A model generated the notes under the pieces. It was not told where the DNA came from, did not search any database, and saw only the letters and a program-made list of their open reading frames with translations. The translations under genes were made by a program, and so were the position numbers. Positions 7,666 through 60,040 of a stretch of 64,000 bases of DNA are shown one piece after another. Where the stretch lies: NCBI GenBank assembly GCA_000002445.1, contig CP000068.1, positions 736,001 to 800,000 of the forward strand. Reading direction: 5' to 3'. How positions within the stretch are numbered: the stretch's first letter is position 1; the number at the start of each line of letters is the position of its first letter. The DNA is from Trypanosoma brucei. Taxonomy: Eukaryota.

Positions 7666-9303
7666 ATGTTGGAGGGACTATGCGTGCGCAAGGCTGTGGA
7701 GCGTCTGCGGCATAAGACATCACAACAGCGGCAACTCGTTAATGAGATGCGGGAACGCGCTGATGCCCTTACTGCAAGTGGCCTCGCTGCTGCTCGTGCA
7801 AGGCGGGACCCGGCTGCGCAGAAGCTGCAGCACCAGGAACCTTGCTTTGTGGAGGTAGCAAGCAGCAGCAACCTGCAGCGCGGTTTCTCTCCTGATTGTA
7901 TGCTAAGTGGCGTCGCGATTGGTGTGTCGGATACGCTTGACGTGCGAGAGTTTTGCACGCGGTACGGGACTCAGTCACAGCTACTGCAGCAGATGCCACA
8001 AACAGAATTTCCTTTCGTCTCCTGGCTTCGCCGCCATGGTGCCCAGTTTGTCGGAAAGTTGGCGTGTCGGACACCGCTGACAATCGATGAGGCAAGTCTG
8101 ATTGTTTCTGACAACCCTGCTGCCGTGGCCGTTTCTCGGAATGCGTGTAACTACGCCATCAGTTCCTCGCTTATGGGGCCTGCAGCCCTGACATCCCCCT
8201 TACATCATCCTATTGCTTCATTTAAACCCACAGCGCAGTCGTTTGCGACATTTGCGGAGGGTTATCGACTCTCGGTTCCGTCCATGTCCTTCGGTATAAC
8301 CGCGGGGACTCTCGATGATATATTTTATTTGTGGGAAGTATTTACGTCAGCCATTCAACCAGCCTCATTCTTTGACACTCAGAGCGGTGATACAACCGAT
8401 GGGAATGACGGGAATGCCGTCACCGATAGCAATAAGGCCACCGGATCCACGAAACGGAGGCGCCCGGTGCCCTCCCCTCCAAATGACTCGAGCGCGAACC
8501 GTTATGGATATGCCAGTGTAGGAAGGTTCAAACGTTCGATTAGTGATGGGTATTCAAGTTTACGAGGGAGTCGGCCAACAAGTGGGGAGGAGGAATTGAT
8601 TGGACCACACATTGAACTTTCTGTCGGTTATCCCGCGGATTGGATTGATGCCCTTTGCCATGAGCGACTCTTGTCGGCTGACGAGTTCCGCCGCCGCATT
8701 CTTCGGCTTGTTTCCACACGCAATTCTATGCGAAAGAATGAAGTTTTGGAGGTCATTCCACTCACTATTGACATTGACCTGGAGGAGGTAGTGCAGGCAA
8801 CACAAACAATCGGCCTTTACGAGCTTTCACAAGCCTTCGATCGCCTCTTCTTCTGGAACACTCATTCGGACGGAAGAGATCCGTGCTTATCATCATCATC
8901 ATCCACATCCGGAAAAGCGGGCGTACTGGAGGAACTTCCGGAAGAACTAGTGTCTGCAATTTTTAATGGTAGAGCGCTGACCAGTCTTGACTACCATCGT
9001 GCACTGCGAACGCGTGACAGTGTTGTGAGGGCAACAGAGGAACAGTTTCGTGACGTCGACTTCATATTAACTCCGATGTTGTCAGAACCGTACGTAAACA
9101 GCAGCATGAGAAGCATCGCACTCCTGCTCCCGTTTTCACTCGGTGGGAATCCAATGGTTTCGTTGCAGTTAGAACCGGACTTTCCTGTCGTGCTTATTGG
9201 TGAGTTAGGTCGGGATACGGGATTGTTTGAGGATAGCACTACGTTTCTTCAGTTCGTGCAAGGAACATCACCAGGATGGTGGCGGAGAAAGTTTATGAGG
9301 TGA
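7666..9303 (+). CDS. Hypothetical protein, 545 aa.
   Basis: ATG-initiated 1.6-kb ORF on the PTU coding strand, with a polypyrimidine tract upstream (around 7440-7480). No confident family assignment. Confidence 0.5.
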   Translation: MLEGLCVRKAVERLRHKTSQQRQLVNEMRERADALTASGLAAARARRDPAAQKLQHQEPCFVEVASSSNLQRGFSPDCMLSGVAIGVSDTLDVREFCTRYGTQSQLLQQMPQTEFPFVSWLRRHGAQFVGKLACRTPLTIDEASLIVSDNPAAVAVSRNACNYAISSSLMGPAALTSPLHHPIASFKPTAQSFATFAEGYRLSVPSMSFGITAGTLDDIFYLWEVFTSAIQPASFFDTQSGDTTDGNDGNAVTDSNKATGSTKRRRPVPSPPNDSSANRYGYASVGRFKRSISDGYSSLRGSRPTSGEEELIGPHIELSVGYPADWIDALCHERLLSADEFRRRILRLVSTRNSMRKNEVLEVIPLTIDIDLEEVVQATQTIGLYELSQAFDRLFFWNTHSDGRDPCLSSSSSTSGKAGVLEELPEELVSAIFNGRALTSLDYHRALRTRDSVVRATEEQFRDVDFILTPMLSEPYVNSSMRSIALLLPFSLGGNPMVSLQLEPDFPVVLIGELGRDTGLFEDSTTFLQFVQGTSPGWWRRKFMR

Positions 9304-10212: not shown

Positions 10213-11715
10213 ATGGAAAGAGGGGGAAAAATTGCGGCTATATTTGTCGGTCATTTCGTGTCGCGCCGTCATAAGGTTTTTTTATTTCTATTTTCCCTCT
10301 TATTTTTCTTCACGTCCGTTATGTTGTTGTCCAGTTGCTTCCTTCTTAGCACTCCCAGCTTTTTTTCTACTGGGACTTCGGAGGGAAGTTCCATATCGCG
10401 GGGAATTGTGTCGTTTTCCTCAGGCGAGCTTCCGTCTTCCAATGTTGCAGCGGATACTGCTACCATTTTTGTTTCACTTGCTTCATTTCGTGATAGCGAG
10501 TGCGTGACAACGCTGGACCGTCTTTTCAGTGCGGCAAAAAATCCACACCGCGTGTTTGTTGGTATCAGCGAGGAGCGATTTGGGAGTGAAAGCGGCTGTA
10601 CCAACTCTCCTACACTTTTAGGGTTCGTTGGAAGTCAGCGTGATTTTAATATTCGTTGGCGTGACGTTGTGCCCCGTGCATTTGATGAGGCGACATCAGA
10701 TGAGTTCCGACCACCTCCGACAACTCCGCTACTACACGCAAGACGTGAGAACGACGTTCTCACATGTTTCCTCAAACCCAAAATTTCGCGACCGAGTCCG
10801 TTACCGCAAGGCAAAGAGCTTTTGCGCAACTGTCAGGTCGTCACACGTGTCGGTGATCCGGATGATGCACGGGGCCCCACCTACGCACGGTACATCACTA
10901 GCCTTTTTTACGTAGATCAGGATTATTATATGGTCATTGACAGTCACATCAGAGCGCTTTTGGAGTGGGACGAGAAGATGATTAAACACGCTCGGCTTAT
11001 GCCAACTCGGGGAGTTTTGTCGCATTACCCTAACGGCTACACTCCGCAGAATCCAGACAAGGAAGTTAATTACACTCATGTGATGGCCATGTGCAAGGCT
11101 GTCATTCCTCCCACCAACATCCCAAAGCTTGGGGCTCGATGGATTTTGAAAAGACAGCGTCCACTTCTTCAATCACTTGTGGCCGCAGGCTATATCTTTG
11201 GTGATGCTCAGTTTGTGAAGGATGTACCATTTGACCCCTATCTCCCCTACTTATTTGAGGGGGAGGAAATGCTGTACACTGCACGACTCTGGACAAATGG
11301 GTGGGACAGCTACTGCCCGGGAGATTCATTTGTCTTCCACAACTATGAACGAGCGTCCGCGCCAAGGTTTTGGTCCGCAATATACAAGAGCAACCAGAGC
11401 GAAAGCCGGAAGCGGCAGGAAAAAATTGGGGTTCTTCGCGCACTTTACTTAATGGAAAGGAAGGAGCTGAACACAACAGTACCGCTTGTTTCGCGTGACG
11501 TAGCGCAGATCGTGTGTCCCGCCATCAGTATCGAGGAGGGCCGCTTTGGCATGGGAACCGTAAGGCCACTTGACGCTTTCTGGGAATTCGCTGAGCTTAC
11601 CGATGCGTTCTTGAAGGAGAAGGACGACGAAGGGCGGTGGATGGGTGGTGAGGGGTTGTGTCACCAGTTGGAGGCGCTTAGTGCCTCCATCAAACATATG
11701 GCTTCTGAAGATTAG
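10213..11715 (+). CDS. Type II membrane glycosyltransferase, GT60-like (Pfam 'GlcNAc' PF11397-like).
   Basis: N-terminal signal-anchor (VFLFLFSLLFFFTSVMLLSSCFLL). The start of the catalytic domain, 'IFVSLASFRDSEC...TLDRLF..AKNPHRVFVGISEE', resembles the GT60/GlcNAc-transferase family N-terminus. An acidic motif 'DQDYYMVIDSH' is also present. Family recalled from memory, not searched. Confidence 0.5.
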   Translation: MERGGKIAAIFVGHFVSRRHKVFLFLFSLLFFFTSVMLLSSCFLLSTPSFFSTGTSEGSSISRGIVSFSSGELPSSNVAADTATIFVSLASFRDSECVTTLDRLFSAAKNPHRVFVGISEERFGSESGCTNSPTLLGFVGSQRDFNIRWRDVVPRAFDEATSDEFRPPPTTPLLHARRENDVLTCFLKPKISRPSPLPQGKELLRNCQVVTRVGDPDDARGPTYARYITSLFYVDQDYYMVIDSHIRALLEWDEKMIKHARLMPTRGVLSHYPNGYTPQNPDKEVNYTHVMAMCKAVIPPTNIPKLGARWILKRQRPLLQSLVAAGYIFGDAQFVKDVPFDPYLPYLFEGEEMLYTARLWTNGWDSYCPGDSFVFHNYERASAPRFWSAIYKSNQSESRKRQEKIGVLRALYLMERKELNTTVPLVSRDVAQIVCPAISIEEGRFGMGTVRPLDAFWEFAELTDAFLKEKDDEGRWMGGEGLCHQLEALSASIKHMASED

Positions 11716-15269: not shown

Positions 15270-16151
15270 GAGGCACAGTTAGTATGTTTGCATCGTCTAA
15301 ACTTATCCTTTCTTTGTTTATGTGTTAAGTTGCACTTTACTCAAACTCTCCAGATATATTTACATACGAGTGTGCGTTTCTCCGGTTGTTTATTGTATCA
15401 GAGGGCCACTTTTTAAAAATTTCTCAGATAGCGGACGCATTTCTATTCAACGGTTAACATCCTTTTGTTTACCCTTTCATTATATATTTATTTGTTTTTA
15501 TTTTCTTTATATGATAAAGTATGTGTTTATATATAATAATGGGAGTGGACCTTAAGAGGCCGTTCCACCTTTCCTGAAGTTAACTTAAGTGCGAGGAGGA
15601 GGAGGAGAAGTCCGATTGGTGCCTTAACTTTTCATTGTTACTTATCTATTAAGTTGTTACACACTTCTTAAAATGAGGATGATGACTATCACCTCATTTT
15701 ATTTGTTTGTAATAACCGGTGATGGGAACACTAAAAGTGCATCAAACAGCAGCAAGAAAGGGCTTTTACCTGTGTGATTGGATGGATGAAAGGAACATCT
15801 TTTTTTTTTTTTTTGGGGGGGGGAGGTGGTGATGGGAAGTAGAAGTGACAGACGCATTTATTTATTTATTTTTTATTTCGTGTGTTTCGGCAACATTTAC
15901 TCGGAAATAGATTGTTTCGAATCACTTTCCGCCTTTGCTCACATCTTGTTTTAAGTAAATGTGACACTAACCCGCGTTGTTTTGTCTATTGGCTCGTATA
16001 TTTGTGTTTGTGATTTTTTCCGGTTTATCCTTATGCTTGTTATCCGTAGTGGGTGCTGCGCCCTAAATTTTTAATTTCCGTTTCACAACCTTGTTACCTT
16101 TTCCCCCAGTTCTAATTTACACTTCCGCCTTTCTCATGAATCCCTGTCGTC

Positions 16152-16177
16152 TATATATATATATATATATATATATA
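16152..16177. repeat. (TA)13 microsatellite.
   Basis: Uninterrupted TA dinucleotide run in the intergenic region. Confidence 0.9.
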
Positions 16178-18906
16178 ACACCGTTTTATTTTGTTCTTAT
16201 TTGCTGGGAATTTCACGTAAATAGCAACACAGTGTGAGCCATATTTGTTTTCCTCTGTATACTTACCTTTTTCTCCCCCTCCCAGATATTTACATCTCTA
16301 CTTATCATCATTTTCTTTGCTGTATTTTGTCATTGCTCAATGCGGGTGTTTTTTTTTTTTGCTTTTAGGGAGTATCTTCCGTCAGATCCTTTATTGTGTT
16401 GTTACCCTTTTCACCCTCTACTCCCTTCACATTATTTTTTTTTTATTATCAAAAATAATAATAATAATAATAATTACCATTATTATTATTATTGTTGTTT
16501 TATTGATTCTTCATTCCCGTTACTAGCGCTTATAATGTTATTGTTGTTTTTGTTTGTTAGTGTCTTTGTGATGATGCACTTACATGTAGGTGAACAAAGC
16601 GTCTGTGTATGGGCGGGAGGGAAATGTTCAATGTATTTTTGAGTATTTTTTTCCTTTTGCCAGTTTCCCACCTGTTAGTTTAGTTCGCTAATTCTGTTTT
16701 TTTTTTTTTGCACCTAATAGTACAGCATAAAGAAAGAACCTCTCAATGTCTGTACGTTTGAGTGTTTGTAAGTGTCCGTTCATCCCTTTATCTCTTCTTC
16801 CTTTTTATGCAATGGGTGTGCGAGTAGGCAGATAAATAAATAAATATATATATATATATTATATGCAGGAAAAAAAAACAATAACAATAATAATAATAAT
16901 AAAGAAGGGAATATATGGGATATGGGATGAAAAGAAAGAAAGAAAGAAAGGGAGAAATAATGAGAAAGAGATAGATGGTAAGAGTGAGAGGGAGTGACAT
17001 TTTATTGTGGCGTCACTTGATATAATAAAGGGAAAAGTACGTAAGAGGTAAAAGGGAGTAATATATTATTGTGCATGAAAGTGAAGGTCAAGAGATAAAA
17101 AAGCAATTTGCAGAATAATTCACGCGCATTAAAAAAAAAAAAACGCAATGAGACGTTGAGTTTCTGTTTCTGTTTTTATGTGCGTTCCAACGGATTCATT
17201 CGTTTCGCCTATTTGGTTCTTTTTTTTTTTATAGATTTAACAACTTCGTGTCCTTTGTGTGCATCTGCTCTTTTTTTTTTAAATGTCTTTTCTATTTTTC
17301 CCCCGTCTTTCCTTTCGCTCTCTTCGCATGTTTCTTCTTATTTCAGCACCCCATTTTCGTTGGTACTCGTGTTTTGACGGTGGGAAAAGTTTTACTTAAT
17401 TTTCCGTACGTGTTTTGTTATTTGCGGGTGTTTTGCAGCTCGTTTCCATATTTCAGAGTACAAATTCGTTCTTATCGTTAATATTAAACAAAAAGAAAAA
17501 TTCCTTTCTCTTTTAGTGGACTGAAGTTGTCGTCATTGTTAAATCTCGTTTTCTTTATTAAAATTGTTACGCGCGGTCCTTCTCTTACCTTTCCCAACTC
17601 CATTTCCTTTTCTCTTATTTTTTTTAAATTGTAATTTCCATTCACTCTATACTTATTATTGAATTGTTGGCGCGCTATGATTTATTATTATTATTATGAT
17701 TTATTATTATTATTATGATTTATTATTATTATTATTATTGCTACTACCTTTTCTCTATAGAAGAGGGACAAATATTTTGTTACTTTATGTTATGTTTGTC
17801 CATTTGTCCGCTTCGCGCGTTTGCATTGTTTGAATGAATGATATAAAAGTTATATATATATATATATATATATATGAAATGGGAGCTAGTGGAATAAAGC
17901 AAAATAAGGAAGATGTTTTTTCCTTGGGGGAGAAAAGACGTTGTAGTCGTGTTTTTGTTCTAATATGTTTATTTCCCCCCCTTTCCACTCCCTTTTTTCT
18001 TCACTGTTTTACCCTTTAATCTATTTCCCCCTTCTTTCTTCGGAATATATATATATTATACCAATTATAAGTGAACGAAACGATTTTCCATCATCATTTC
18101 TTCTCCTCTTGTCATTTTTATGTTATTCCTTATCATTGGCATCGGTTACTTTATTATTTCTTCTTTTTTCCTTGTATGATTTACTTCCACCGTTTCTATT
18201 TACATCATTGATCGATCCATCTTTTTTTTTTTTTTACTTTCCTTCCTAATCCCAAGCATTCTCGATAGATTTTTTTTTTTCGTTAATACGGTATGCAGGT
18301 AAGCAACCGAATACCAGTGTGCATTTTTGGGCATGTCTGAGCAAAGTTTCCTCTCTTTTTTTCTTTTTGTATATGTTTATGGAAATGTATTCGGTGGAAT
18401 GTGAGCCTGCGGTACGATAAGAAAAGGTAAAAAGAAAAAAAGGCAGCAAAGGAACTGAAAGGAGGAAAACAGTATTAAAGTAAAAAAAAAAAGAAGTATC
18501 AAAGAAAACGGTGAGAACCATTTAAGATAAAGAAAAAAAATAGAAATGGATGAATTACGCGAAGGACAGGCGCGAGGTCAGACGAATGATGTGAGCCAAT
18601 GCGTTTATGTGTTACGGCTTTCCCCTAGCCCTTCTCATCTTTTCAAAGCAAAAATCATGAACAACGAAGGAGGAATATGGATGCGTATTGTTCGTACTAT
18701 TATCATGATGATGATGATGATTATTATTATTATTGTTGTTGTGGTTGTGGTTGTTTTCATTATTTGTTTGATTCTCTTTGCATTTCTCCTCTGTTTGTCT
18801 ACGCAAATAACCGAATAAAAAGGTACGGGATCGGTTGTATGGTTAGGACTGGAATAAAAGCAGGAACACAAAGGGGTTTTGAAGAATAGAAAAAGGAAGT
18901 AAAAAG

Positions 18907-20112
18907 ATGTCTCAAGCTGATAATGCTGAGCTAAAAAGCAAAGATGCACGTACATTTGCCGTGAATTTCGCTGAAGTGGGAATATGTCCAAAGAGTGGAG
19001 TACCGATTCGACTCTGTTACCAAACCTTTGGTGAGCCCGCAGCCCCAAACGGCGCTGTTCTTCTTATTATGGGATTAGCATTATCACAACAACTGTGGGA
19101 TGTAAAATTTTGCATGCGTTTAGCTTCATGTGGTTACTACGTTATCCGTTTTGACAATCGAGATATTGGTAAGAGCACAATTTTGGTAGGTAGAAAAGTT
19201 CTCCCTTCCGGAACTACTGAAAGTTCGGATGAGGGTGATATTTGGGAAGATAGCAACTTTTTATCGCACAGCCCTCCAGAAGGAGGTGCTGATGGAAGTA
19301 AAAGCTGTATGTACATTCAGTTGGCACACGCAGGCATTGCAGCTAATGGCCATCGTAAGTTTCAGGAGGTGTATTCCCTTGAGGATATGGCGAAGGATAG
19401 CGTAGGGTTGTTAGATGTATTGAAGATTTCTAGGGCTCACATTGTTGGCATGTGTATGGGTGGGATGATCGCACAAATTATTGCTATTCAATACCCGAAT
19501 CGTGTTGAAAGTCTCTCTCTGATTTCCACACACAGCAGCTCACCTTTATTATCATCTCCATCTCTGCGCGTGATGATCGGAGTCGCTACATTTGCTATCC
19601 GTTGCGTTCGAAAAGGCGTTGCAATCCCATTATCAGATTCTATGGCGGAAAAGCAGGGGCGTAAGCCACTGACATCAAGGGAAAAGGATGACCTCGCACA
19701 GGTTCTTGCACAGTTTGTCACATCCTTTGCTGGCGGCAAAGAATCGGCATTTCCTATCGATCACAAAGCGTTACTGCGGCAGACGCGCCGCATTGTGCAT
19801 TGGAGCGAAGATTTCAGCGGATTCGCCCGTCAGTACGTTGCAATGATTAAGGCCCCATGTCGCGTATCTCAACTGAGAGGTCTTAGCGTTCCTTGTGTTG
19901 TTATTCACGGGACAGATGATTTATTAGTACCTTATCGAAACGGAAAGAAGCTTGCCGATGTCATTCCTGGTTCGAAATTAGTTGGTATTGAAGGACTAGG
20001 ACACATACTGCACCCCCTCTCCCGCGAGCGAATAATCGGTGCCCTGGTGGAAAACATGGGTCAATCAACAAACGCTCTTTCCCGTAGTGGTGCCGTTGCG
20101 GCCAAACTTTGA
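18907..20112 (+). CDS. Alpha/beta-hydrolase fold protein, upstream paralogue. It has G-M-C-M-G in place of the GxSxG nucleophile elbow.
   Basis: 'HIVGMCMGGMIAQ' aligns to 'HVVGSSMGGMIAQ' of the downstream paralogue, and the Cys codon TGT sits at 19453-19455. The acid residue (HGTDDLLVPY) and the His (GLGHILHP) are conserved. There is a ~64-aa insertion relative to the paralogue. Confidence 0.7.
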   Translation: MSQADNAELKSKDARTFAVNFAEVGICPKSGVPIRLCYQTFGEPAAPNGAVLLIMGLALSQQLWDVKFCMRLASCGYYVIRFDNRDIGKSTILVGRKVLPSGTTESSDEGDIWEDSNFLSHSPPEGGADGSKSCMYIQLAHAGIAANGHRKFQEVYSLEDMAKDSVGLLDVLKISRAHIVGMCMGGMIAQIIAIQYPNRVESLSLISTHSSSPLLSSPSLRVMIGVATFAIRCVRKGVAIPLSDSMAEKQGRKPLTSREKDDLAQVLAQFVTSFAGGKESAFPIDHKALLRQTRRIVHWSEDFSGFARQYVAMIKAPCRVSQLRGLSVPCVVIHGTDDLLVPYRNGKKLADVIPGSKLVGIEGLGHILHPLSRERIIGALVENMGQSTNALSRSGAVAAKL

Positions 20113-20712
20113 ACCAACTTAGCGTTACTCATAACTAGCGGTTGTATGCAGTTCACCACTCCTCTTCCCCTTCCGTTTCCTGAAGTTATTAGTGTGGGGA
20201 GGAGGTCCCAAGTTATATGCACGACGGCAGACGGTTGAGCGCATAAATGACATGGTAAGCGTGTGAAATCAACAGAAACGATGAAGTGTGTGTGTGTGGA
20301 GGATACTCGTATGTCAACTCCGTCTAGACTAGGGAGTCTTAGTTATGTCGCATGCTCCCCTGTTTAAACTTCTGTATTTTTTTTGTTTTTTTGGTGCCAA
20401 AGCTATGTGGGGCGTGACCGCGTCGACATTAATGCATTCAGGTACCGCACATTTACTAAATAACTCTGAGTTCTTGACCATAGTTGCCACAGATTCCCTT
20501 ATACTTTAGTTTGTTCACAGAACTCTCTTTTGTTGTTTAATATTGCGTCGGATCTTGTATTATTACCTTCTTCGCTTTCAGCTATTAAATAGTTCATTTC
20601 TGCACACACTAACCAAAAGTTAACGGAATCAAACTTTTGGGTACTGTTTTACGGCCTTGAATTGGTTGATGAATAGTGAAGAATACTGGTACATGAGTTG
20701 CACAAACGAGAG

Positions 20713-21651
20713 ATGTTGACTACGACTGACACTATTGTTAAGGTTGGGAAATGCGCTAGCACTGGGGAGGACATTTCATTATCTTACGATACCTTTGGCA
20801 ATTCAAAAGACCCGTGTTTACTTCTTGTGGTGGGTCTCGCTGGTGTTGGGCGGGTTTGGCGTGATGCTTTCTGTGAGATGATTGCGAAAAAAGGTTTCTA
20901 CGTGGTGCGGTACGACAATCGCGATGTTGGGCTGTCAACTCATTTGGACAATCAACCCACTCCTAACGTCATGCAGTGTTTACTTCCACAGTTTCTCTCA
21001 TTTTTGAGAAAAGTGCCGTATACGCTGGAGGATATGGCAGCTGATGGGATGAATCTTTTGACTGCTCTCGGTATTGAAAGAGCGCATGTGGTGGGTTCCA
21101 GTATGGGTGGCATGATTGCACAAATTATGGCTATCAAGTACCCGAGTCGTGTACGAAGCCTTGGCATCATATACTCTCACACGGGCTCTAGTAAACGAGT
21201 TCCGGAAACATTTTCCACAAAGTTGCTGTTTATGAAAAAACCAAAAAGCTCGGCGCTGGAGGATGTGGTTGATTTCAAGTGTGCACTCGCCCGCCACTTC
21301 CGTGGCCCCGGGTATAACGTAGATGAGGAGGAATTCAGGAAGTTAGCAAAAGAACAGCTTGAACGCGCAAATGATTACCCACAGGGAATGTTGCGACAAT
21401 TGGCTGCTATTTTGTCAGCTAAGAGCCGTGAGGAGTGTTTGAAAACCATCACCATCCCCACATTGATCATTCATGGTATGCTAGACGAAGTTGTGCCGTA
21501 CCAAAATGGACTTCAGATTGCTGAAGCTGTCGGCCCGGCAGCAAAACTTGTGATTTACCCGCGTATGGGACACGAGATACCGGTTGAACTGATGCCTTCA
21601 ATTTCGCAAGAAATTGCCGATAACTGTGGACGGGAACTGACTCTGGCTTAA
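20713..21651 (+). CDS. Alpha/beta-hydrolase fold protein, downstream paralogue with a canonical Ser nucleophile.
   Basis: GxSxG motif 'GSSMGG' (Ser codon AGT at 21100-21102). Asp in 'HGMLDEVVPY' and His in 'MGHEIPVE'. The N-terminal region is similar to 18907-20112 ('YVVRYDNRDVGLST' versus 'YVIRFDNRDIGKST'). The start was moved to the first ATG; the track start at 20698 is TTG. Confidence 0.75.
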   Translation: MLTTTDTIVKVGKCASTGEDISLSYDTFGNSKDPCLLLVVGLAGVGRVWRDAFCEMIAKKGFYVVRYDNRDVGLSTHLDNQPTPNVMQCLLPQFLSFLRKVPYTLEDMAADGMNLLTALGIERAHVVGSSMGGMIAQIMAIKYPSRVRSLGIIYSHTGSSKRVPETFSTKLLFMKKPKSSALEDVVDFKCALARHFRGPGYNVDEEEFRKLAKEQLERANDYPQGMLRQLAAILSAKSREECLKTITIPTLIIHGMLDEVVPYQNGLQIAEAVGPAAKLVIYPRMGHEIPVELMPSISQEIADNCGRELTLA

Positions 21652-22191
21652 CGCACGGAATATGCAACTGGAGAAGTAGCTATTATTGACGGCATTGCAT
21701 TGTTTTCTTTTTGTTTTTATTATTAACTCAATGTCTTTCCAGGTGCTAACTACGGATTTCATTGGGTTCTGCTGTCCGTTTTCCAAAATTAGGGACTGGT
21801 TGTCAAAGCAAAAAAAAAGGAAAAGAGAAGCGATACCAGGAAGAGCAAAACGATTAACAAACAGGTAAACATGAAAGTGCTAACATGGGGATGGGAAATG
21901 AGAGGTAATTCGTCTCTTTTTTTTTCCTGTTTAAAGGCTTTCAATTTGTCTTTTTTTTTGTGTGTGTGTTTTGATTTTTGGTGCTGACTGTGCGAAACTC
22001 GCACCTATCTGCTTCTCTTTTTCTCAAAAGTCTGTAGATAGATAAACTGGTTTTGAAAATAGAAAAAGGAAAAGAAGAAGGGGAAGAGGAAATTGTAAAG
22101 CAAACAAACAAAGAAACAAAGAAAGGAAGTAGGAGGGAGGGAGGGAGAGAAGAAGAAAAAGTGAGTGAGTGTGACGTGTGTTTAATTTGTT

Positions 22192-23220: not shown

Positions 23221-25762
23221 TATGTGAGAAGAGGAGAAAATAAATGAAGGGAAGAAGGAAGAAGGAAAAAAAAAAGCAGGAATGACTATCGTGTTGCGTA
23301 TGTGATTTACAATATGATTGGCGTCTGTATAAACATTCCGTTTTGGTTTTTTTGAATTTGCTGTGTGCATATAAATATAAATATATACATAGAAAAAAAT
23401 ATATATATATTATGATCTAATTTGTCGTCTCTTTTTTTTTTTTGGTTACTTTCTCTCCCTTCCCCGCTCTGATTTCGTCTTCCGTTTTTTTTTCTTCTTT
23501 TGATGCCCTCTTCCGCAGCTATGTTTAGTTTCACGAAGAAGGTTTTTCTAATTTTTTTAAAAAAAAAGTCTCCACAATTTCACCTTCCCCTTTCCACCCT
23601 TTTTTTCCTTTATTTACAAAATGAATTACGCTCGTATTTTTAAATAAACAACGACTTATACGTTAGGTTATTGTTTCGCTCAGAGGGAATGTGTAAGAAT
23701 TGAAATAGATGAAACAATACAACAGGAAAAGGTTTTTTTTTAAAAAAAAGGTCGAAGGGAAGCTCATGAGGTGAATAAATTGAGGTGATCTACTTGCTGT
23801 TGTGTTTATCATGTGGAACGGAGGGGAAAAGAAAAAATCATATATGCTCGGAGGAGCCAAATTTACTAAACTTTACTAATTGTTCCCCTTCTCTCTTTTT
23901 TCCCCCTTGTGTGTGTGTGTGTCTCTGTGTGTTTTTTTTTTACACCAAATCCTTTCTGCTCTTCTTTTCTTTTTTCTTTTTTCTTTTTGTTTTGTTTTGA
24001 ATGCGTGTGCGTGTGTCATCTTCGTTTTGGTTTCTATTTTTGTTTCCACGTTTCCTTTTTTTTTTTCTTCCACTTCCCCCTCTCATTTAGTTGTTATACG
24101 GCAGCTGTTTTCAAATGTCAGTAATTGCACTCATTCACGGGGGAAACGTGGTATAAAATATGTAAAGGTGGATGTTCTGCTGTGATAAATTGTTTTTGCA
24201 GTTTGCAGCGCAAACAAGCAAACAAACAAAACACAAACTTCTTTCTTTCTCTTTCTTTTTCTCTTTCTCTTTCTCTTTTTTTTTTTTTCATCCCTCTTGT
24301 TTCCCTTTTAAAATGTTCCAGCCATTTTTTTTTGCTTTCTTTTTTTTTGGGGGGGTTTTGCTGGGGTTGTTGTCACCACGCAGAGAGCGTGCAGGGGAAA
24401 AACCCGTTGTCCTTTTTTTTTTTTCGTTTGCTTATTGTTTTTTTGTTGTTTATATTATTCTATTTGCATATAGAAGTTATTTTTGGGTACGCGCGTGAAA
24501 TACAACATTTGTTATCATCTTTATTACCGCTACAGACGCTAACGTTATATCGTTGGAGTTAGGGAAGGGATTGGTGGTTGCGGATACGGAAGTAGCATCT
24601 GTTTTCTTTTTCTTTTTTTTATTTATAACAATTGTTATGTGTGTGTGTGTTTTTTTTTTTAAAAAAATAATTTCAATACCTCTCAACTCCCTTTTTTTCC
24701 CTACTCCCCGTCACATACATATATACATACATATGCGCGCACAACGAAATGAGTGCAATTATATAAATAAAAATATCCATCTGTAAGTTCTTTGAAATAT
24801 GATTATATATGAATGAATATGTATGTTTCTTTGTTTGTGCACTGTTCATTTTATATTTTATGTTACCATCGCTATTATTATTGCTATCGTTAATATTCTT
24901 TTTATTTCCTTTTCCCGTTTCCTTTTCTTCTTCTCTTTTTCTCAGCACTTTTTTCTTTTTAGTTGTTGTCGTTGTTGTCGTTTTTCTTCTTTTATTTGTC
25001 TTCTTGGACATTATCTTACATTTCTGAAGGAAATTCCCGTTTGTTGTAGTCGGAGGTCAACACGAAGCGGAGGCGAAAAGTTCAACGCCTCCCTCCCGCC
25101 TTTTAAAAGCAGGCGGTGGGGAACGACACGTGGAAAAAGAAAAAAAAAACAAAGTAAAAAAAGTAAAAAAAGTAAAAATAAAAATAAAGTAAAAGTAAGC
25201 TGAGGGAGAAGCGGTTTACCATAGCATTTAACATATAATAGGTGGAGAGGGAGAGTAATAAAGGTCAAAAGTAAAAACAAAAAAAAAAGAAAAAAAATAT
25301 AAAAACAATAAGATACATATATTTAAAGAGGGAACAGAAGTTGGAGTAAAGCCCTAAAAAACAAAAAAAATAGTGTGGGAAGACAAAAGAGAGGGACAGT
25401 CTTCATCGCACAAGCGGGGTATAAAGTTGTTGTTTTGTTTTTTTTTTTTAGAAAAAAAGGAAATACAAATATATAAGTTAACTCAGTGACTTCCGGCATT
25501 AGAGTAACAAAGATAACAACACTAACACATTCGAAGTGAAGGCACGCGAAGTCTCAAAAACTGTTCGTAACATCAACGGAACTAGCTAACACACAAACGC
25601 ACACAAAAGACAAACATTGTCCAAAGAACACGTTTCTTCATAGAGAACTGTATCAGGTCACGAATCTAAAGAAGAAAAAAACAACGCAAAATATAACTGA
25701 GAAGGTGAAGATTTGGGTGCACGAGCACTTGTTTGAAGTGCACCATCCGAATTGCCTTCCAA

Positions 25763-28723
25763 ATGCATCACGGTCGCAAAGTTCTTGAAGCCCAGAAGAA
25801 ACGCGATACCGCACCTCAACAGGAATACTTTCCGCTTTCTAAGGAGAAAGTGAGACATGATCGGGTCCATCGAGCTGAAGAGGGGAAGCGAGATAGAGAA
25901 AATATCGGTGACATGAACCTCGACGATAGAAGGGAAGATAATAGAGGAAATTGTGTTTCTGGAAGAGATGCTTCTCCGGGATCTTCTTCTCGAAGTAAGG
26001 GCGTTTGCAGTGAATATCAATACGGTGAGCACAAACGGCAGCGATTGTCACCGGAAGGTCATGATTTCAAAGTTTCAGCCACACAGAGCTCACACGGTTC
26101 CACGGATGCCTATTTATCATCGGATCGATCCATAGGGAATCTGCGAAATAAGTCAAGAGCCACAGATGCTTCGATGCGCAACATGGTAGTGGGTACTTCA
26201 CCACTATCAACTGGAAAATATAATATCTCCATGAGGAATAGGGCAACGCGTTCTGCCTTGGCTGATCATGATGGGGAGTTTACTCCAAAGGTTAATGCCC
26301 CTCCAGCCATCGGTTCCAGCGGACAACTGCCGTCGCAAGCGACCGACTTCCATTTACCACTTAAACTATACGATACTATGAAGCCGTCTCCACGTGTTGG
26401 GGTGGGGGAGAAATATCCAATAAAGCCATCCTTTCAGGCTTCGCATGGTTCGCGAGATGCGTATTCGCACGGTCCACAGCTGGGGATGTCAGATATGGCA
26501 CCAGCTGCCCTTAAGCGGTCAAGTGCTCCATCATACGGTGAGGTTTTTTCAGGGGCGCATGTGGCGAGTTTAAGCAGGGGTAGAAAAATGGAAGGAAGAA
26601 ATACGCCGAGGTCAGTCCGATTAGGGGAATGGAGGACTTCCCATTCACGCAGTGGAGACGGTGCTGTTTCCGAACACGCGGAGCGGCGTCATCGTCAGGC
26701 AAATCATCCGTTACAAGACCATCTTTTTGCACCCCGACGCCGTGCTTTGGAAATACCGCCATCCGACCCTTTTTCATTCAGGGGAATTAGTTCTACTGAG
26801 AGCGGCTCGCATTCAAGTAGTCGCACTGGCAACTTCACTCAGCACTCTGAGCAACACGACGGCCGGGTATCCAGCAGCTATACGCAGAGCCCAGAAACAG
26901 GTTTTGAGATGTGGCGTGGTGACAAAACGCCTTACAATGCTTCTCAAAGTGGTTCGCCTGGTTGTGATGCTGGATACGCTCCAGGAAGCACCAATGCCAG
27001 TAGCGCGGTTGAGTCGCACCCTTCGTACCTGGGTTCCCTATCATGGGCCGCGCCGCACGTTTACCAACACCAACAGGAGGTGCCCTGCATTCCACGACCC
27101 CACGTCGAGTACAGTGGCTTTATTAACCCCGAAAATGACTGTTATGCGTGCAGCGTACTGACGCTTTTGTTGCGCAGCCCCTTATTTTGTAGAGCGCTGC
27201 TAGCTTCACCCACTGTAGAGTGTGTGAGGCCCGTAAAATCCGTTAACAATACTGCGGCAACCAGTAGCAGCAGTCTCACAACATCTTACGATCCGACACC
27301 TGCAGGCGTTGACCATGATACAGTTCGTGAGGATCCACCTCCTGTAAGTTTGCATCATGTGTTGAAATACTTTGCTGGTTTGCTTCAGTGTCCACAGGAC
27401 ATAGAAGGGGGAATAGACATGAGACCATTGCGACATTTTTTTAGAGGGAACTTCTTTTCTGGACAGCAAGAAGATGCACACGAATTCTTCCTCGCCGTCA
27501 TTGACAAACTAACTGAGGAGTCTAAAATGTTTCTTAAATCCACGGATGCATCAGGGGGATTTGATAACCCTGCAGTGGAAGAAGGCGAAGCTTCAAAAGA
27601 AATAAGTACTGATGGTCAGGGTACCGCAGCTGAAGGGACACCGCGGTCGTCGGGTAACGAATCAATGCCCCTTTGGATAAATACTTTGATTACGGGACAG
27701 CTTCTGAGCATCATTCGCTGTGGAAATGCGGCGTGTGGGCACGAGATAGCGACGGTCGACCCTTTCATTAACCTCTTAGTTAATATACGTAAAGGAGAGG
27801 AGACAAATGAAACACTTCGGCAAAGTAACCCCAACAGTTCACCTTGTCAAGAAAGCGAGCACTGTGCACCCAATTCCGAACCCGTTGGGTCGCATGGCAG
27901 TCTGCTGTACGCAAGCCCCATTTCTCCCAAACCGTATTACGATGTGCTGTCTCTGCTCACGTACAGCTTCCGTTTTTCAGCTCTCGATTCCTATGTTTGT
28001 GACGCATGTGGATCTTCCAATCAGCAGTTGCAGGGTGGCTGTCTACTGGGGGCTCTGCCACCACTTTTAGTCGTACAAATGAAGCGGTTTGCCACAACGT
28101 ACTCTCCAGAACTGGGTGCTTCTGTGACGAAGGATGTGTCCCCCGTCCTTGTTAATCGAAATATTGTGTTGTACTCTTTGGATGAAGAACATTATAATCG
28201 TGAAGAGAAGACATTGAGGTCGAGTGTGTTGCATGCGGAACAAAAGGCTAAACAACACAGTGAAGGGGAAGCTGTTGATGAATCAGCAACCCATGTGAAG
28301 GCCACTCGATGTTCCTACCGGTTGCAAGGTGTGGTGCGTCATTTGGGGAAATCTCTTTATGGTGGCCACTACACAACGGAGTTCGCGCAGGAACGAGTGG
28401 ATAGAAAAGAAGAAGAGGAAGAAGAAGAAGAGGAGGAGGGGGATGGAAGTACGGATGGAACTAAAGATGGCTGTGGGCACCAAGTCGATGGGGAGCGTAC
28501 CGGAGAAGGCAGCGTTGAACGGGAGAAACATATAAGTTCGGATCAATGCGCAAAAAGGTCTTGGTATATGGCGGATGACGAAAGAGTTTCGGCACTTTCT
28601 GAAGAATATTCAATGAAAGAAGCTTCCCGTTCCTGTACATGCTACTTGCTGTTATACGAGAAGGTGGGGGAGGAAGCCGTTTCATCTCATGTATGGGATA
28701 TACTCCCACGGGGAAGCGAGTGA
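25763..28723 (+). CDS. Ubiquitin carboxyl-terminal hydrolase (USP, peptidase family C19).
   Basis: Cys box 'GFINPENDCYACSVLTLL'. His box 'YRLQGVVRHLGKSLYGGHYTTEF'. C-terminal 'CYLLLYEKV'. A poly-Glu insertion (EEEEEEEEEE) follows the His box. The first ATG in the ORF is at 25763. Confidence 0.85.
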   Translation: MHHGRKVLEAQKKRDTAPQQEYFPLSKEKVRHDRVHRAEEGKRDRENIGDMNLDDRREDNRGNCVSGRDASPGSSSRSKGVCSEYQYGEHKRQRLSPEGHDFKVSATQSSHGSTDAYLSSDRSIGNLRNKSRATDASMRNMVVGTSPLSTGKYNISMRNRATRSALADHDGEFTPKVNAPPAIGSSGQLPSQATDFHLPLKLYDTMKPSPRVGVGEKYPIKPSFQASHGSRDAYSHGPQLGMSDMAPAALKRSSAPSYGEVFSGAHVASLSRGRKMEGRNTPRSVRLGEWRTSHSRSGDGAVSEHAERRHRQANHPLQDHLFAPRRRALEIPPSDPFSFRGISSTESGSHSSSRTGNFTQHSEQHDGRVSSSYTQSPETGFEMWRGDKTPYNASQSGSPGCDAGYAPGSTNASSAVESHPSYLGSLSWAAPHVYQHQQEVPCIPRPHVEYSGFINPENDCYACSVLTLLLRSPLFCRALLASPTVECVRPVKSVNNTAATSSSSLTTSYDPTPAGVDHDTVREDPPPVSLHHVLKYFAGLLQCPQDIEGGIDMRPLRHFFRGNFFSGQQEDAHEFFLAVIDKLTEESKMFLKSTDASGGFDNPAVEEGEASKEISTDGQGTAAEGTPRSSGNESMPLWINTLITGQLLSIIRCGNAACGHEIATVDPFINLLVNIRKGEETNETLRQSNPNSSPCQESEHCAPNSEPVGSHGSLLYASPISPKPYYDVLSLLTYSFRFSALDSYVCDACGSSNQQLQGGCLLGALPPLLVVQMKRFATTYSPELGASVTKDVSPVLVNRNIVLYSLDEEHYNREEKTLRSSVLHAEQKAKQHSEGEAVDESATHVKATRCSYRLQGVVRHLGKSLYGGHYTTEFAQERVDRKEEEEEEEEEEGDGSTDGTKDGCGHQVDGERTGEGSVEREKHISSDQCAKRSWYMADDERVSALSEEYSMKEASRSCTCYLLLYEKVGEEAVSSHVWDILPRGSE

Positions 28724-31485
28724 AGGCTTTCCTCTTCTTTCCCTTTACTCCACTGGTGCATGTATTAATCAAACGTTTAGTAGTGCAATTATGTATGCGT
28801 TTCATATATATATATATATATATATGTACGCATATGCATTTCGCCAAATTTTCACACGCAAATGCATATCTGTTTCACTGCTATGCACAGACGTACATAC
28901 GCACATGCATGCGTATACCACTTTTCGATTACCCTTCCCAACCAACAAGATGTTTGTGAACAAATAAAGTGTGAAGTACATGTAAGTGTATTTCCCTCCT
29001 TTTCAAATTGTGCCACGATATGATGTTGTGTTATAACAAGTGGACGGAAGCTGTTGCGAAGTAAAAAAGGAAAATAAAAACGCATAGAGAAACGGGCGGA
29101 TATGTCCATATTACTGTTTTGGTTTCTTGTTTCTATTTTTCAGTTTCCTCGCGTTGCCTGTTTGTCACTTATTGATGCGGATTACACACACGTGCGTGAG
29201 TTTTGTAACGGACGAAAGGAGCATCAAAGTCGTCACGTGCCTATTCTTTTTTTTGTTTTTTTGTTTTTTTGTTTTGTCTTGTTTCTTTTCCTCTTTTGTT
29301 TTTTCTTTCGTCCTCGTCACCCAATGCATTCAGTTCAAAAACAAAAACAATATGTCATAGAAGGGATGCTAGAAACCTTTGCTGAACCATATTTGTTGAG
29401 ATGTCTGCAGTTTTTATTCCCCCACTGGATGGAAGTGATTGAAAGGGGGGAGCGAAAAAAAAAAATAATATATATATATATATATCACCTTCACCTTCCC
29501 GCACGATGTTGCTGATTTACAGTATGCATACAATCACTCGTATATATGTTTGAATAAATATATGTCTCGGTACGTATTCATTTGTGTGTGTGTGTGTGTT
29601 TTTTTTTTTTTTAAATTAAAAATTTGCTTACCCCCGTAGTGGTGTACTTTTTGTTGTTGTCGTTCTCCCTTTTTTTCTTTTTTTTATTTTTACTTTTTTC
29701 TCTTGCTTCTCGAATGCTCATTTTCTTTTCCTTTGTGCACGTGAGTTTTAACGAAGAAGGAATTGTACGGCACTTTACAATTACGAAAAAAAAAGAAGGT
29801 GTACGAAAGATGAGGGAAAGAAAACACACATACACACACAGACAAAATATTCTTTGTTTTTTTTTTAAAAAAAAGAACGGAAACTTAAAGGATGGGGTAT
29901 TGTGTTGTGTTGTGTTGGGTCGGGTCGGGGAGGTATAGGATAAAAACAACAATAACACAAATAGCGACAGTCGGTGCTTATATTAATGATGACATTAGTA
30001 ACAATTGTGGTAATAAAGGTAACAGCACCATGGTAATAAGAATAAATTTAAAAAAAATTGTATTGATTTCGAAAAGCAATGTTGTGAATCTGAGGGAAGT
30101 AAAGAAATAAACAGAAGGGATAAATGTGCTGCGTTAAAAAATTTTTCGTTTGTACATATTCAACACAACATTAGCGAGTATCGCAGCTGTTTTTCTTTCT
30201 TTTTTTCCCCCTCTTCCGTTTTTGTTATTTTCCATGATTTTATTGCTTTCCTCGCGACTCAATAACAATTTAGTCTTTGTGTTTGCGAAAGAGAAAGATG
30301 TGTAATGATACTTTTTTTTTTTTTTGGTTCTTTCTTAAAAGTAAATGGGTGAAGGTTTAGCGTGGTTGTGGAAGTGAGGCGAAGGAAAAAGGAATCCTCG
30401 CGGTACAGGTTATTATTGTTACTCTCTTTTACTTATTATGCTTATATATATATTCGGTTTTGTGAATGTGTGTATACGTTGGTCATGTTATTGTTATTAT
30501 TGTGATGGTGTGATGAAAAGAATTTATGAAGAAATGAAGGAAAATTTCTCAAAGTAATAGTAACAGAAATATAACAGCAAAAACAAAAAAAAACAACAAC
30601 AACAGTAACAATAGCTCCAAGAGAAAGGAGACAGATGAAAGGACGTTTCTGACATTTTTTACTGAGGTGATTATTACGTGGCGAACGAAAATACCGTTTG
30701 GGTTCTTTTCTTTTTTCATTTTTTTTATTTTACACTTTTTGTGTGATTTGTTCAATCATGGACGGTGCGCGTAAAGGGGTGAGGAACAAAAACCAAAAAA
30801 AAAAAGAAAAGAAATAAGAAACTTCGTAAAGTATATTATTTGTATTTATAACTTTCTTTTTTTTCTCTTCTTACAAAGCTCCCTTTTTTGAGAGATAAGC
30901 ATAGATGCTTAAACAAGTGCACACAAGTAATATCTTTCCCGTTTGCTAATGGGCATGCCAATATTTTATAATTTTTCAGCTTTCTGTATTACATTTTGTT
31001 CTGCCGTCGTTATCTTTTTAAAAATTTTTTTTGCTTTACATAATCTTTTTTTTTTTAAGTGTTATACATTTGCTTCTCCCCTTTCTCTTATTCTTCTTCC
31101 TCTACTTTTTCCTTACATTTATTATTTAAATTTATTTCACTCTCTCTGTGAACATATATATATATATATATATATAATTAACAAAAGGAAGGGGCATAAA
31201 GTTCTTAGGAATCCGCCGTCTGCTCTCGTGTTTGAGCGGCGTGCAGGGGGGAAATAGTTACGATTGCTTCAAAGGAGGAGGGCAGGTGGAAAAAATAGGT
31301 GTGTGACAATTGGTGGCGCTGGAAGAGAGGAAACACCTCATTTCCGATACATATACAAATATATATATATATATATTTGTATAAGTAAGCGGCCATCCGA
31401 GTCACCAAGTTATTCAACAAGGAAATAAAAGTAAAGGAAAATCGCCAAAAGAAAAGAAGGAAAGAGGTAATACGACACAAAAGCA

Positions 31486-31486
<1 letters not shown>

Positions 31487-31523
<37 letters not shown>

Positions 31524-31544
31524 ACACACACACACACACACACA
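31487..31544. repeat. (CA)n microsatellite of ~29 units with one GA interruption.
   Basis: CACACA... run; on the other strand it reads (TG)n. Confidence 0.9.
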
Positions 31545-31703
31545 AAGGAAACAAGTTAAAGGAAGAGTGAGTAAACACGTGGGTAGAGGGAACGTGAAAG
31601 GAAGTGAAAGAGGCGCTAACTGTATCACAGGAAAGGGAACAAAAAGAAGAAAAAGAAAAGAGAAAGAAGGAAAAGGTAGATAGTTGGAGCGAACGGAAGT
31701 ACA

Positions 31704-31751
31704 TTTTTTTGTTTTTCTTCACTTTCTCTCAGTCTTTGTTTTTTTTTCTAG
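31704..31751 (+). promoter_or_regulatory. Polypyrimidine tract followed by AG. This is a candidate trans-splice acceptor region for the kinesin gene.
   Basis: A ~45-nt T/C-rich run ending in ...tttctAG, about 180 nt upstream of the ATG at 31934. Confidence 0.3.
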
Positions 31752-31933
31752 AGACCCTGCTTAGTTGTTTGTTAGTGCGTGCAGTTGTGTGATTTGAGGA
31801 AGAATAGTATATATTACTGTGCGGAAGGCAACTGTTTCAAGGCAGTTGCGACCGCACTGTTAAAGTCAACAAAAGGAATTTGTGACGAATTTAAACAGAG
31901 GTGAAGGATAGAAACAAAAGAAAAACAATTGCA

Positions 31934-59865: not shown

Positions 59866-60009
59866 GGTGAAGAAACAAAAGGGGGGGGGAACAAAAAATA
59901 AGAAAAGAATAAAAGAAACTGTGGGGGGAGGGGATTACTGTGAAGTTTAATAGAGATGGATAGTGACGGTACAAGTGGCGTCAAAAGGAAAAGAAAAGGG
60001 GGAAAAAGG

Positions 60010-60040
<31 letters not shown>

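Follow-up and report, generated by a model that had tools for sequence, protein, structure and literature searches.

We analyzed a 64,000-nucleotide stretch of Trypanosoma brucei chromosome 5 (GenBank assembly GCA_000002445.1, contig CP000068.1, positions 736,001 to 800,000; hereafter the window) and observe that the upstream member of a tandem pair of alpha/beta-hydrolase genes encodes cysteine at the position of the catalytic serine and keeps the Asp and His of the triad. With moderate confidence, we favor the reading that this gene encodes an active glycosomal Cys-His-Asp hydrolase of the RdmC/EstT-like esterase branch, one that would accept either Ser or Cys as its nucleophile. Window coordinates refer to the + strand unless stated otherwise, and the two genes are as follows.

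18907..20112, + strand: upstream gene Tb927.5.2370 (AAZ11352.1/XP_844911.1), 401 aa, an alpha/beta hydrolase bearing a peroxisomal targeting signal 1 (PTS1) and a predicted Cys nucleophile; identified by its open reading frame (ORF) and Pfam Abhydrolase_1
20713..21651, + strand: downstream gene Tb927.5.2380 (AAZ11353.1/XP_844912.1; Q582C7), 312 aa, an alpha/beta hydrolase with a canonical Ser-Asp-His triad and no PTS1

A first-pass annotation, made from the sequence alone, had described two neighboring alpha/beta-hydrolase paralogues at this locus, and this is borne out by the adjacent ORFs (18907-20112 and 20698/20713-21651), by Pfam Abhydrolase_1 (PF00561) scores of 72.9 bits upstream and 80.1 bits downstream (cutoff, 25.8), which make both proteins members of the superfamily, and by a mutual identity of 32% (E = 2e-45). 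Database records from T. brucei brucei TREU927 and T. equiperdum contain exactly these two proteins. The mechanically called downstream ORF opens at an in-frame TTG, five codons (20698-20712) 5' of the annotated ATG at 20713. The 312-aa form that starts at this ATG agrees with the database proteins and with the published mass, its computed 34.433 kDa being the value that the supplementary tables of PMC5436138 give for Tb927.5.2380 (Q582C7).

In the same work, Tb927.5.2420 is given as NSUN2-like, and Tb927.5.2370 is the entry adjoining Tb927.5.2380, with the same description. The gene order in the window (hydrolase, hydrolase, 342-aa ORF, UCH, kinesin, and RsmB/NSUN-type methyltransferase) fits the numbering from 2370 to Tb927.5.2420, and we therefore equate the upstream gene with Tb927.5.2370, an identification by adjacency to Tb927.5.2380 and by gene order. 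No mention of Tb927.5.2370 was found in the main text of the literature searched, glycosome reviews and papers included, nor is an orthologue of the upstream gene mentioned in a Leishmania serine-hydrolase paper using activity-based protein profiling.

The catalytic positions of the two proteins are listed below. Predicted local distance difference test (pLDDT) values come from an AlphaFold2 model of the upstream protein built on a 94-sequence alignment, and the oxyanion-hole roles follow those described for the esterase EstT (PMC13389593).

19447..19464, + strand: nucleophile elbow G181-M-C183-M-G-G186 (GGC ATG TGT ATG GGT GGG), aligning to EstT G-M-A(S102A)-L-G-G; pLDDT 98
19453..19455, + strand: Cys183 codon TGT, the catalytic nucleophile position; Cys in nine other Trypanosoma sequences
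19918..19920, + strand: Asp338 codon GAT, the triad acid; invariant in 94 homologues and aligned with EstT D235
20002..20004, + strand: His366 codon CAC, the triad base; invariant in 94 homologues and aligned with EstT H263
19075..19077, + strand: Leu57, predicted oxyanion-hole residue (backbone NH), aligned with EstT A32
19456..19458, + strand: Met184, predicted oxyanion-hole partner of Leu57, aligned with EstT L103
21100..21102, + strand: downstream Ser130 codon AGT, the nucleophile in G-S-S-M-G-G (GGT TCC AGT ATG GGT GGC)

The first-pass annotation had thus read the motifs and their coordinates correctly, with Cys in an upstream G-M-C-M-G (TGT, 19453-19455) and Ser in a downstream G-S-S-M-G (AGT, 21100-21102), and the same is true of the retained Asp and His, since Asp338 and His366 do not vary across the 94 aligned homologues. 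Its concern that a misalignment might place the Cys outside the elbow is answered by the alignment with EstT, in which the query 'ivgmCmggmiaqi' lies opposite 'lfgmAlggmiaqi', the Ala being the engineered S102A, so that Cys183 falls on S102. EstT has the triad S102-H263-D235 and an oxyanion hole made up of A32 and L103 (PMC13389593); by sequence alignment, Cys183, Asp338, and His366 match the Ser-Asp-His triad of the crystallized EstT/EstX esterases. The AlphaFold2 model (pLDDT 87.3; predicted template modeling score, 0.88; local pLDDT of 97-98 in the triad regions) agrees: C183 sits between strand 177-182 and helix 184-195 in a strand-turn-helix elbow, strand 330-335 precedes D338, and strand 357-361 precedes H366. 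This is the canonical alpha/beta-hydrolase layout, in which the elbow (small-x-Nu-x-small-small, Nu being the nucleophile) comes after beta5, the acid after beta7, and the His after beta8.

The closest known structures are those of esterases. In a phmmer search of PDB, EstT and EstX were nearest by sequence (E = 1.7e-38 to 2.6e-33), also with lipase ORF17 and RdmC in a set that extends to 2e-27, and the top Foldseek matches in PDB were ORF17, EstX, EstT, and RdmC (E = 1e-25 to 1e-22; target-normalized template modeling scores of 0.74-0.88).

Comparison with orthologues, which the first-pass annotation had named as the check on the Cys, gives Cys at this position in T. b. gambiense, T. conorhini, T. 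grayi, T. rangeli, T. cruzi, T. c. marinkellei, T. theileri, T. melophagium, and one more relative. Ser is found in T. vivax (G-M-S-M-G-G) and in the Leishmania/Porcisia/Novymonas/Lotmaria group. The possibility that codon 183 reflects a sequencing error, a strain polymorphism, or a recent single-nucleotide polymorphism draws on the single base that separates TGT from Ser codons and on the Ser of the T. vivax and Leishmania orthologues, but it is refuted by the orthologue comparison and we give it next to no credence: the identical protein is present in the independent TREU927 and T. equiperdum records, Cys occurs in T. b. gambiense and in eight further Trypanosoma sequences from independent assemblies, and the T. 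cruzi codon is also TGT.

T. brucei and T. cruzi share TGT as the nucleophile codon; T. vivax has TCT, L. donovani has TCG, and P0258, a Cys-bearing orthologue ending in -SKL, has TGC. A single first-position A-to-T change, as first proposed, is a true description of the difference from the paralogue's AGT but not of the likely history; because the Ser-bearing orthologues use TCT (T. vivax) or TCG (L. donovani), codon comparison makes a second-position exchange of C and G (TCT to TGT or the reverse) the likely path and AGT to TGT less likely. A neighbor-joining (NJ) tree pairs T. brucei with T. vivax (92% bootstrap) and gathers the other Trypanosoma species into a clade of their own (99%), which implies either a reversion to Ser in T. 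vivax or two origins of Cys. An Angomonas sequence, P0259, was considered as an upstream orthologue and rejected; it groups with the downstream clade and is without a PTS1.

With respect to localization, the upstream protein ends in -AKL, a tripeptide of the PTS1 type ([SAC][KRH][LM]) that is kept in its orthologues.

20101..20109, + strand: C-terminal tripeptide A-K-L, PTS1 glycosome-import signal; clade members end in [SA][KRQHSA][LIM], and Tb927.5.2370 is in the glycosome set

Across the 27 members of the clade to which the upstream protein belongs (hereafter the PTS1 clade; 97% bootstrap), the C termini are AKL, SKL, SRL, AKI, SKM, SQL, SSL, SHL, SAL, or AAL and so PTS1-like throughout, and a PTS1-like C terminus was seen in none of the orthologues of the downstream copy that were inspected. 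As listed in Supplementary Data 11a of PMC5436138, Tb927.5.2370 is in the glycosomal reference set, i.e., the high-confidence class of Guther et al. 2014, and to the extent of that table the protein is therefore both expressed and glycosomal; for the upstream ORF, this assignment leans on the gene identification by adjacency and gene order. Tb927.5.2380 is placed in the non-glycosomal (mitochondrial reference) set of the same study, with an abundance that is independent of ATOM40 (ratios of 0.94 and 0.82).

The replacement of the nucleophile is not confined to one species or to one event. Six more PTS1-bearing members of the clade came from a profile search of 1.84 billion representative proteins, and their elbows read as follows.

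P0363: G-M-C-M-G-G
P0364: G-M-S-L-G-G
P0365: G-Y-C-L-G-G
P0371: G-F-S-L-G-G
P0402: G-H-C-F-G-G
P0368 (Logan assembly, contig of up to 90 kb; C terminus -SHL): G-V-T-M-G-A, with the triad His changed to Met (the G-H motif now G-M)

The nucleophile position in the PTS1 clade is occupied by Cys in 13 members, Ser in 13, and Thr in 1, and Cys was found in 2 of the approximately 480 homologues inspected outside it. On all of 200 bootstrap NJ trees, the Fitch parsimony count for this position lies between 6 and 8 changes. The remaining catalytic machinery does not move with these exchanges: all triad positions are filled in the upstream protein (C183, H366, and D338), the 13 Cys-bearing members all read C-D-H, and the only member with neither Ser nor Cys (P0368, with Thr) has lost the His as well. 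Since Ser and Cys alternate around otherwise fixed machinery, the enzyme appears to work with either residue.

We observe three further peculiarities among the sequences recovered. The Cys-bearing homologues outside the PTS1 clade are a cluster represented by P0482, which includes Euglena mutabilis transcripts and has the elbow G-A-C-L-G-G, and P0388 from an ENA metagenome (G-R-C-F-G-G), both of which keep the Asp and His; P0482 has a kinetoplastid-like N terminus (V-K-V-G-K-C-E-S-T) and ends in -SAM, and a Ser-to-Cys swap therefore also occurs in a euglenid. The gene for P0258 lies at 608-2050 of a 3764-bp contig (L005, from SRR22803263) of a very GC-rich trypanosomatid (GC at third codon positions, 87%), and its downstream neighbor is a Gpr1/Fun34/YaaH-family gene and not the paralogue, so that synteny differs there. 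Finally, P0011 (661 aa, JGI) and P0362 (1920 aa, EukProt) match with two hydrolase-like regions or several stretches of the family and could represent fused genes, or else gene models that merge members of a tandem array.

The first-pass annotation had left the choice between a thiol hydrolase and a pseudo-enzyme. Dead alpha/beta hydrolases, such as those of the Ndr and neuroligin types, usually have Gly, Ala, or Asp at the nucleophile position and have lost other triad members. Were the upstream protein of this kind, hydrolysis would have been lost on the change from Ser to Cys, and the product would be a non-catalytic binding or scaffold protein of the glycosome with insertions that offer new interaction surfaces. 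We consider this unlikely. It would be in line with the general finding that a Ser-to-Cys exchange usually cripples serine hydrolases (PMC6642262), with the long stem branch of the PTS1 clade and its large, partly disordered insertions, and with the plainly degenerate triad of P0368 (Thr, and His to Met), but it fits poorly with the Cys forms themselves, all of which have invariant or nearly invariant Asp338, His366, G-x-Nu-x-G-G elbow, and oxyanion-loop residues. Bar that one degenerate sequence, the position has held nothing but the nucleophiles Ser and Cys through at least six exchanges, and loss of activity leaves unexplained why only nucleophilic residues should alternate where Asp, His, and elbow are fixed. 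The within-genus rate of the Cys copy is also close to that of its Ser paralogue: T. brucei and T. cruzi are separated by a protein distance of 0.68 in the upstream and 0.59 in the downstream copy, which indicates comparable constraint and a Cys copy that is not decaying.

Several observations weigh against an active Cys enzyme or against parts of that interpretation. Most of the additional clade members derive from SRA assemblies, and two clade members look degenerate, namely P0368, with its Thr and missing His, and P0258, in which the oxyanion loop reads L-L-Q-T-V for L-I-M-G-L (Q-T replacing M-G). By a hand count of parsimony changes on the NJ tree, Cys and Ser are tied as the ancestral state of the clade. 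No consistent pattern of residues co-varying with the nucleophile was found around the elbow, and no compensatory residue; the elbow is otherwise identical between T. vivax (G-M-S-M-G-G) and the other Trypanosoma species (G-M-C-M-G-G). Finally, the searches yielded from T. congolense only the orthologue of the downstream copy (P0130) and none of the upstream copy. As judged from its sequence, P0368 looks like a truly degenerate, pseudo-enzyme relative, an instance of decay within the PTS1 clade to which the Cys forms stand in contrast.

Taken together, the alignment of Cys183 with Ser102 of EstT, the retention of Asp and His in all 13 Cys forms, and the repeated exchange favor the thiol hydrolase over the pseudo-enzyme, and the upstream protein is probably a working thiol enzyme, either an esterase or a thioesterase. 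In the mechanism that we propose, the -AKL C terminus would direct Tb927.5.2370 into the glycosome matrix, and the catalytic center would consist of Cys183, His366, and Asp338, while Leu57 and Met184 would provide the oxyanion hole through their backbone NH groups. A thiolate/imidazolium pair would attack the carbonyl of an ester or thioester, and water, or perhaps a different acceptor, would then resolve the thioester acyl-enzyme so formed. Within the clade, single-base changes have switched the nucleophile between Ser and Cys around fixed catalytic machinery, Cys is the state fixed in most Trypanosoma species, and three elements have been gained: one between beta4 and helix B that is disordered in part and helical in part, a bigger cap, and a C-terminal helix carrying the PTS1. 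Tb927.5.2380 is the conservative, non-glycosomal Ser paralogue. Sequence, motif positions, conservation, synteny, fold, and the PTS1 pattern are observed in the present analysis, and presence in the glycosome proteome comes from the literature; that Cys183 is catalytically competent, that the mechanism passes through an acyl-thioester, and what the insertions do are inferred.

The structural elaborations of the upstream protein lie in three places, the first two of which are located as follows.

19180..19371, + strand: expanded beta4-alphaB segment, residues 92-155, a net gain of about 38 aa over the paralogue
19228..19278, + strand: acidic, Ser/Pro-rich part of this segment predicted to be disordered, residues 108-124 (pLDDT < 50); length-variable and low-complexity in orthologues
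19297..19359, + strand: conserved helical part, residues 131-151, with a clade-wide L-A-[YH]-A motif and helices at 131-144 and 148-151 (pLDDT of about 77-85)
19549..19692, + strand: enlarged cap (lid), about 27 aa longer than in the paralogue and in bacteria

An insertion of 64 aa had been reported at first. The string in question does correspond to residues 92-155, but the segment measures 65 aa in the upstream copy compared with 27 aa in the paralogue and a bacterial median of 25 aa, with lengths of up to 113 aa among the other Trypanosoma orthologues and of 37-59 aa in the Leishmania group; the net gain is therefore only about 38 aa and is a feature of the whole PTS1 clade. Within the helical part, A140 is invariant across the clade, and Y141, A142, and G147 are nearly so. 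Two further elaborations had been missed: the cap, which spans 105 aa from S202 to R308 compared with 78 aa in the paralogue and bacteria and is modeled with helices at 220-238 and 244-250 and with disorder at 240-246, and the C terminus, which extends about 10 aa further than that of the paralogue and whose helix bears the PTS1. In the alpha/beta-hydrolase topology, the loops at the C-terminal ends of the strands make up the active-site face. The cap determines specificity in the EstT group (PMC13389593). Because of this position of the strand-end loops and this role of the cap, the inserted segment, the larger cap, and the C-terminal helix probably reshape the substrate pocket.

Neo-functionalization, which had been suggested for the upstream copy, applies in part. 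The clear changes after duplication are those of the compartment (PTS1 and glycosome proteome) and two structural elaborations; the chemistry may have changed as well.

With EstT/EstX, RdmC (aclacinomycin methylesterase, 1Q0R), ORF17 (a metagenomic lipase, 8PZG), and Est1/Ade1, the upstream protein shares the core fold. The likeness to the EstT/EstX group extends to the L-L-I-M-G oxyanion loop, the G-M-x-[LM]-G-G-M-I-A-Q elbow, and the positions of Asp and His. That group has a Ser nucleophile, as does the downstream copy, where the upstream protein has Cys; moreover, the upstream protein differs in being eukaryotic and PTS1-bearing/glycosomal and in its two additions, of 38 aa in the segment from beta4 to helix B and of 27 aa in the cap. 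Membership of the macrolide esterase equivalogs was rejected, since its scores of 184.2, 152.1, and 127 bits against NCBIfam NF052610, NF041759, and NF033124 fall far under the respective cutoffs of 420, 450, and 600. The paralogue Tb927.5.2380 and its trypanosomatid orthologues, which belong to the same family and locus, have Ser throughout and are without PTS1 and without the insertions.

The analogy with dienelactone hydrolase drawn in the first-pass annotation is useful for the mechanism and does not extend to the family. Dienelactone hydrolase acts through a Cys nucleophile and a thioester acyl-enzyme. At an E value of 0.01 or below, the Pfam scan gave no DLH or Thioesterase family match for the upstream protein, and we rejected membership of the dienelactone hydrolase family, with which only the use of Cys is held in common. 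Dienelactone hydrolase, P91-type enzymes, and the thioesterase domains of the SulM and ObiF nonribosomal peptide synthetases combine a Cys elbow with a His/Asp relay and a thioester acyl-enzyme, and their likeness to the upstream protein is one of fold and of Cys/His/Asp; in the trypanosome protein, however, the Cys arose within a family of Ser-dependent esterases and alternates with Ser among orthologues. Natural Cys nucleophiles in alpha/beta hydrolases are known mainly from a few separate families. Cys2818 of the SulM thioesterase domain is a functioning natural Cys nucleophile in an alpha/beta fold (PMC11298585), and CALB S105C with compensating mutations is an active cysteine-lipase that works via a Cys-/His+ ion pair, a result that led its authors to raise the question of whether natural cysteine lipases exist (PMC6642262). 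Engineered CALB was evolved in the laboratory and required the additional mutations, whereas the trypanosome swap is natural and no compensating change was identified for it.

A more specific proposal is that the upstream protein is a specialized transferase or thioesterase acting on activated acyl donors such as acyl-CoA or thiol conjugates, the Cys form favoring acyl transfer over hydrolysis, which would be a case of true neo-functionalization in glycosomal lipid metabolism. We rate this as rather improbable. Substrates open to both nucleophiles would fit the concentration of toggling in the PTS1 clade (13 Cys and 13 Ser, compared with 2 Cys among about 480 homologues elsewhere), natural Cys nucleophiles in thioesterase domains of the alpha/beta fold do act on thioesters (PMC11298585), and enzymes of acyl-CoA and lipid metabolism occur in the glycosome proteome list, whose entries in PMC5436138 include DHAP (dihydroxyacetone phosphate) acyltransferase, acyl-CoA binding protein, enoyl-CoA hydratase, and monoglyceride lipase; the proposal is nevertheless wholly inferential, the nearest characterized relatives hydrolyze oxygen esters and lactones, and no characterized enzyme offers a counterpart to its cap, the region by which specificity is set. 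That the glycosomal clade is a natural "cysteine esterase" lineage, with Ser and Cys interchangeable in function because the substrate is an activated thioester (acyl-CoA or a thiol conjugate) and with the Cys forms acting as a thioester-forming thioesterase or acyltransferase in glycosomal lipid metabolism, seems to us equally doubtful, and the active Cys-His-Asp hydrolase remains the reading that we prefer.

As for the origin of the pair, the order of upstream and downstream copy is kept in T. vivax, T. cruzi, and L. donovani, and both copies share an N-terminal V-G-x-C-x-S-T-G and core motifs. T. cruzi (L004:10364-11653) and L. donovani (L003:13155-13296 onward) have a third tandem alpha/beta-hydrolase paralogue 3' of the downstream copy. 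In T. cruzi, this third copy is 429 aa long and has Ser as its nucleophile (G-I-S-M-G-G); its identity is 39% with the downstream and 33% with the upstream copy of T. brucei, and the gene after it is the orthologue of the 342-aa gene of T. brucei. The third copy is absent at the T. brucei (window 21652-22191) and T. vivax loci, where the next gene follows directly, and because these two loci run straight into the next gene, the array probably shrank from three genes to two in salivarian trypanosomes. To judge from gene order, the array predates the split between Trypanosoma and Leishmania, since the tandem order and the third copy are common to T. cruzi and Leishmania.

The pair had been called clearly a local duplication, which is not demonstrable from sequence: identity to bacterial homologues is 35-38% for the upstream copy and 41-47% for the downstream copy, at least as high as the 32% between the copies, and the two kinetoplastid clades are adjacent in the NJ tree, but the split uniting both copies against bacteria has 30% bootstrap support. 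The array is ancient and not recent.

Neighboring genes in the window are the following.

7666-9303, + strand: weak Amidase-like ORF
10213-11715, + strand: GlcNAc-transferase family protein (E = 2e-138)
25733-28723, + strand: UCH ubiquitin hydrolase
37381-40206, + strand: RsmB/NSUN-type methyltransferase (Tb927.5.2420)
41028-42599, + strand: MatE transporter

All five lie on the + strand, as expected of one polycistronic unit. An ORF at 31901-35953 (1350 aa), by gene order probably Tb927.5.2410, joins an N-terminal kinesin motor to Armadillo repeats and a calpain domain-III-like region, an unusual combination. The intergenic stretches 16001-18900, 24001-26000, 30001-32000, and 60001-64000 have 28-36% GC, a strong skew of T over A, and homopolymer or low-complexity runs, which is typical of trypanosome regions between coding sequences, with their splice and polyadenylation tracts. 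ORFs called in those stretches (e.g., 18546-18818 and 18635-19048) were rejected as spurious, low-complexity artifacts.

What is new here is modest in scope, as Cys-His-Asp chemistry itself is already known; it lies in the joint occurrence of a Cys nucleophile, a PTS1, and elaborations of the pocket within a family of Ser-dependent esterases. A Ser-to-Cys swap is generally deemed damaging (PMC6642262), and here it is fixed in most Trypanosoma species within an ordinary Ser-esterase family. T. brucei with Cys and T. vivax with Ser in the same elbow (G-M-x-M-G-G), together with the Ser of Leishmania, provide a ready natural series on the interchangeability of the two residues. Annotation of the upstream protein as a "serine hydrolase" would be inapt, and fluorophosphonate (FP)-type profiling, which is built for Ser, could overlook a Cys nucleophile. 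Tb927.5.2370 is an uncharacterized glycosomal protein, seen by proteomics as far as the tables cited above go, and an active-site thiol would allow selective covalent probes. If the thioester reading were true, natural Cys-His-Asp lipases or esterases would indeed exist within Ser-esterase families, and the trypanosome glycosome would harbor a previously unrecognized activity in the form of a thiol-targetable parasite enzyme.

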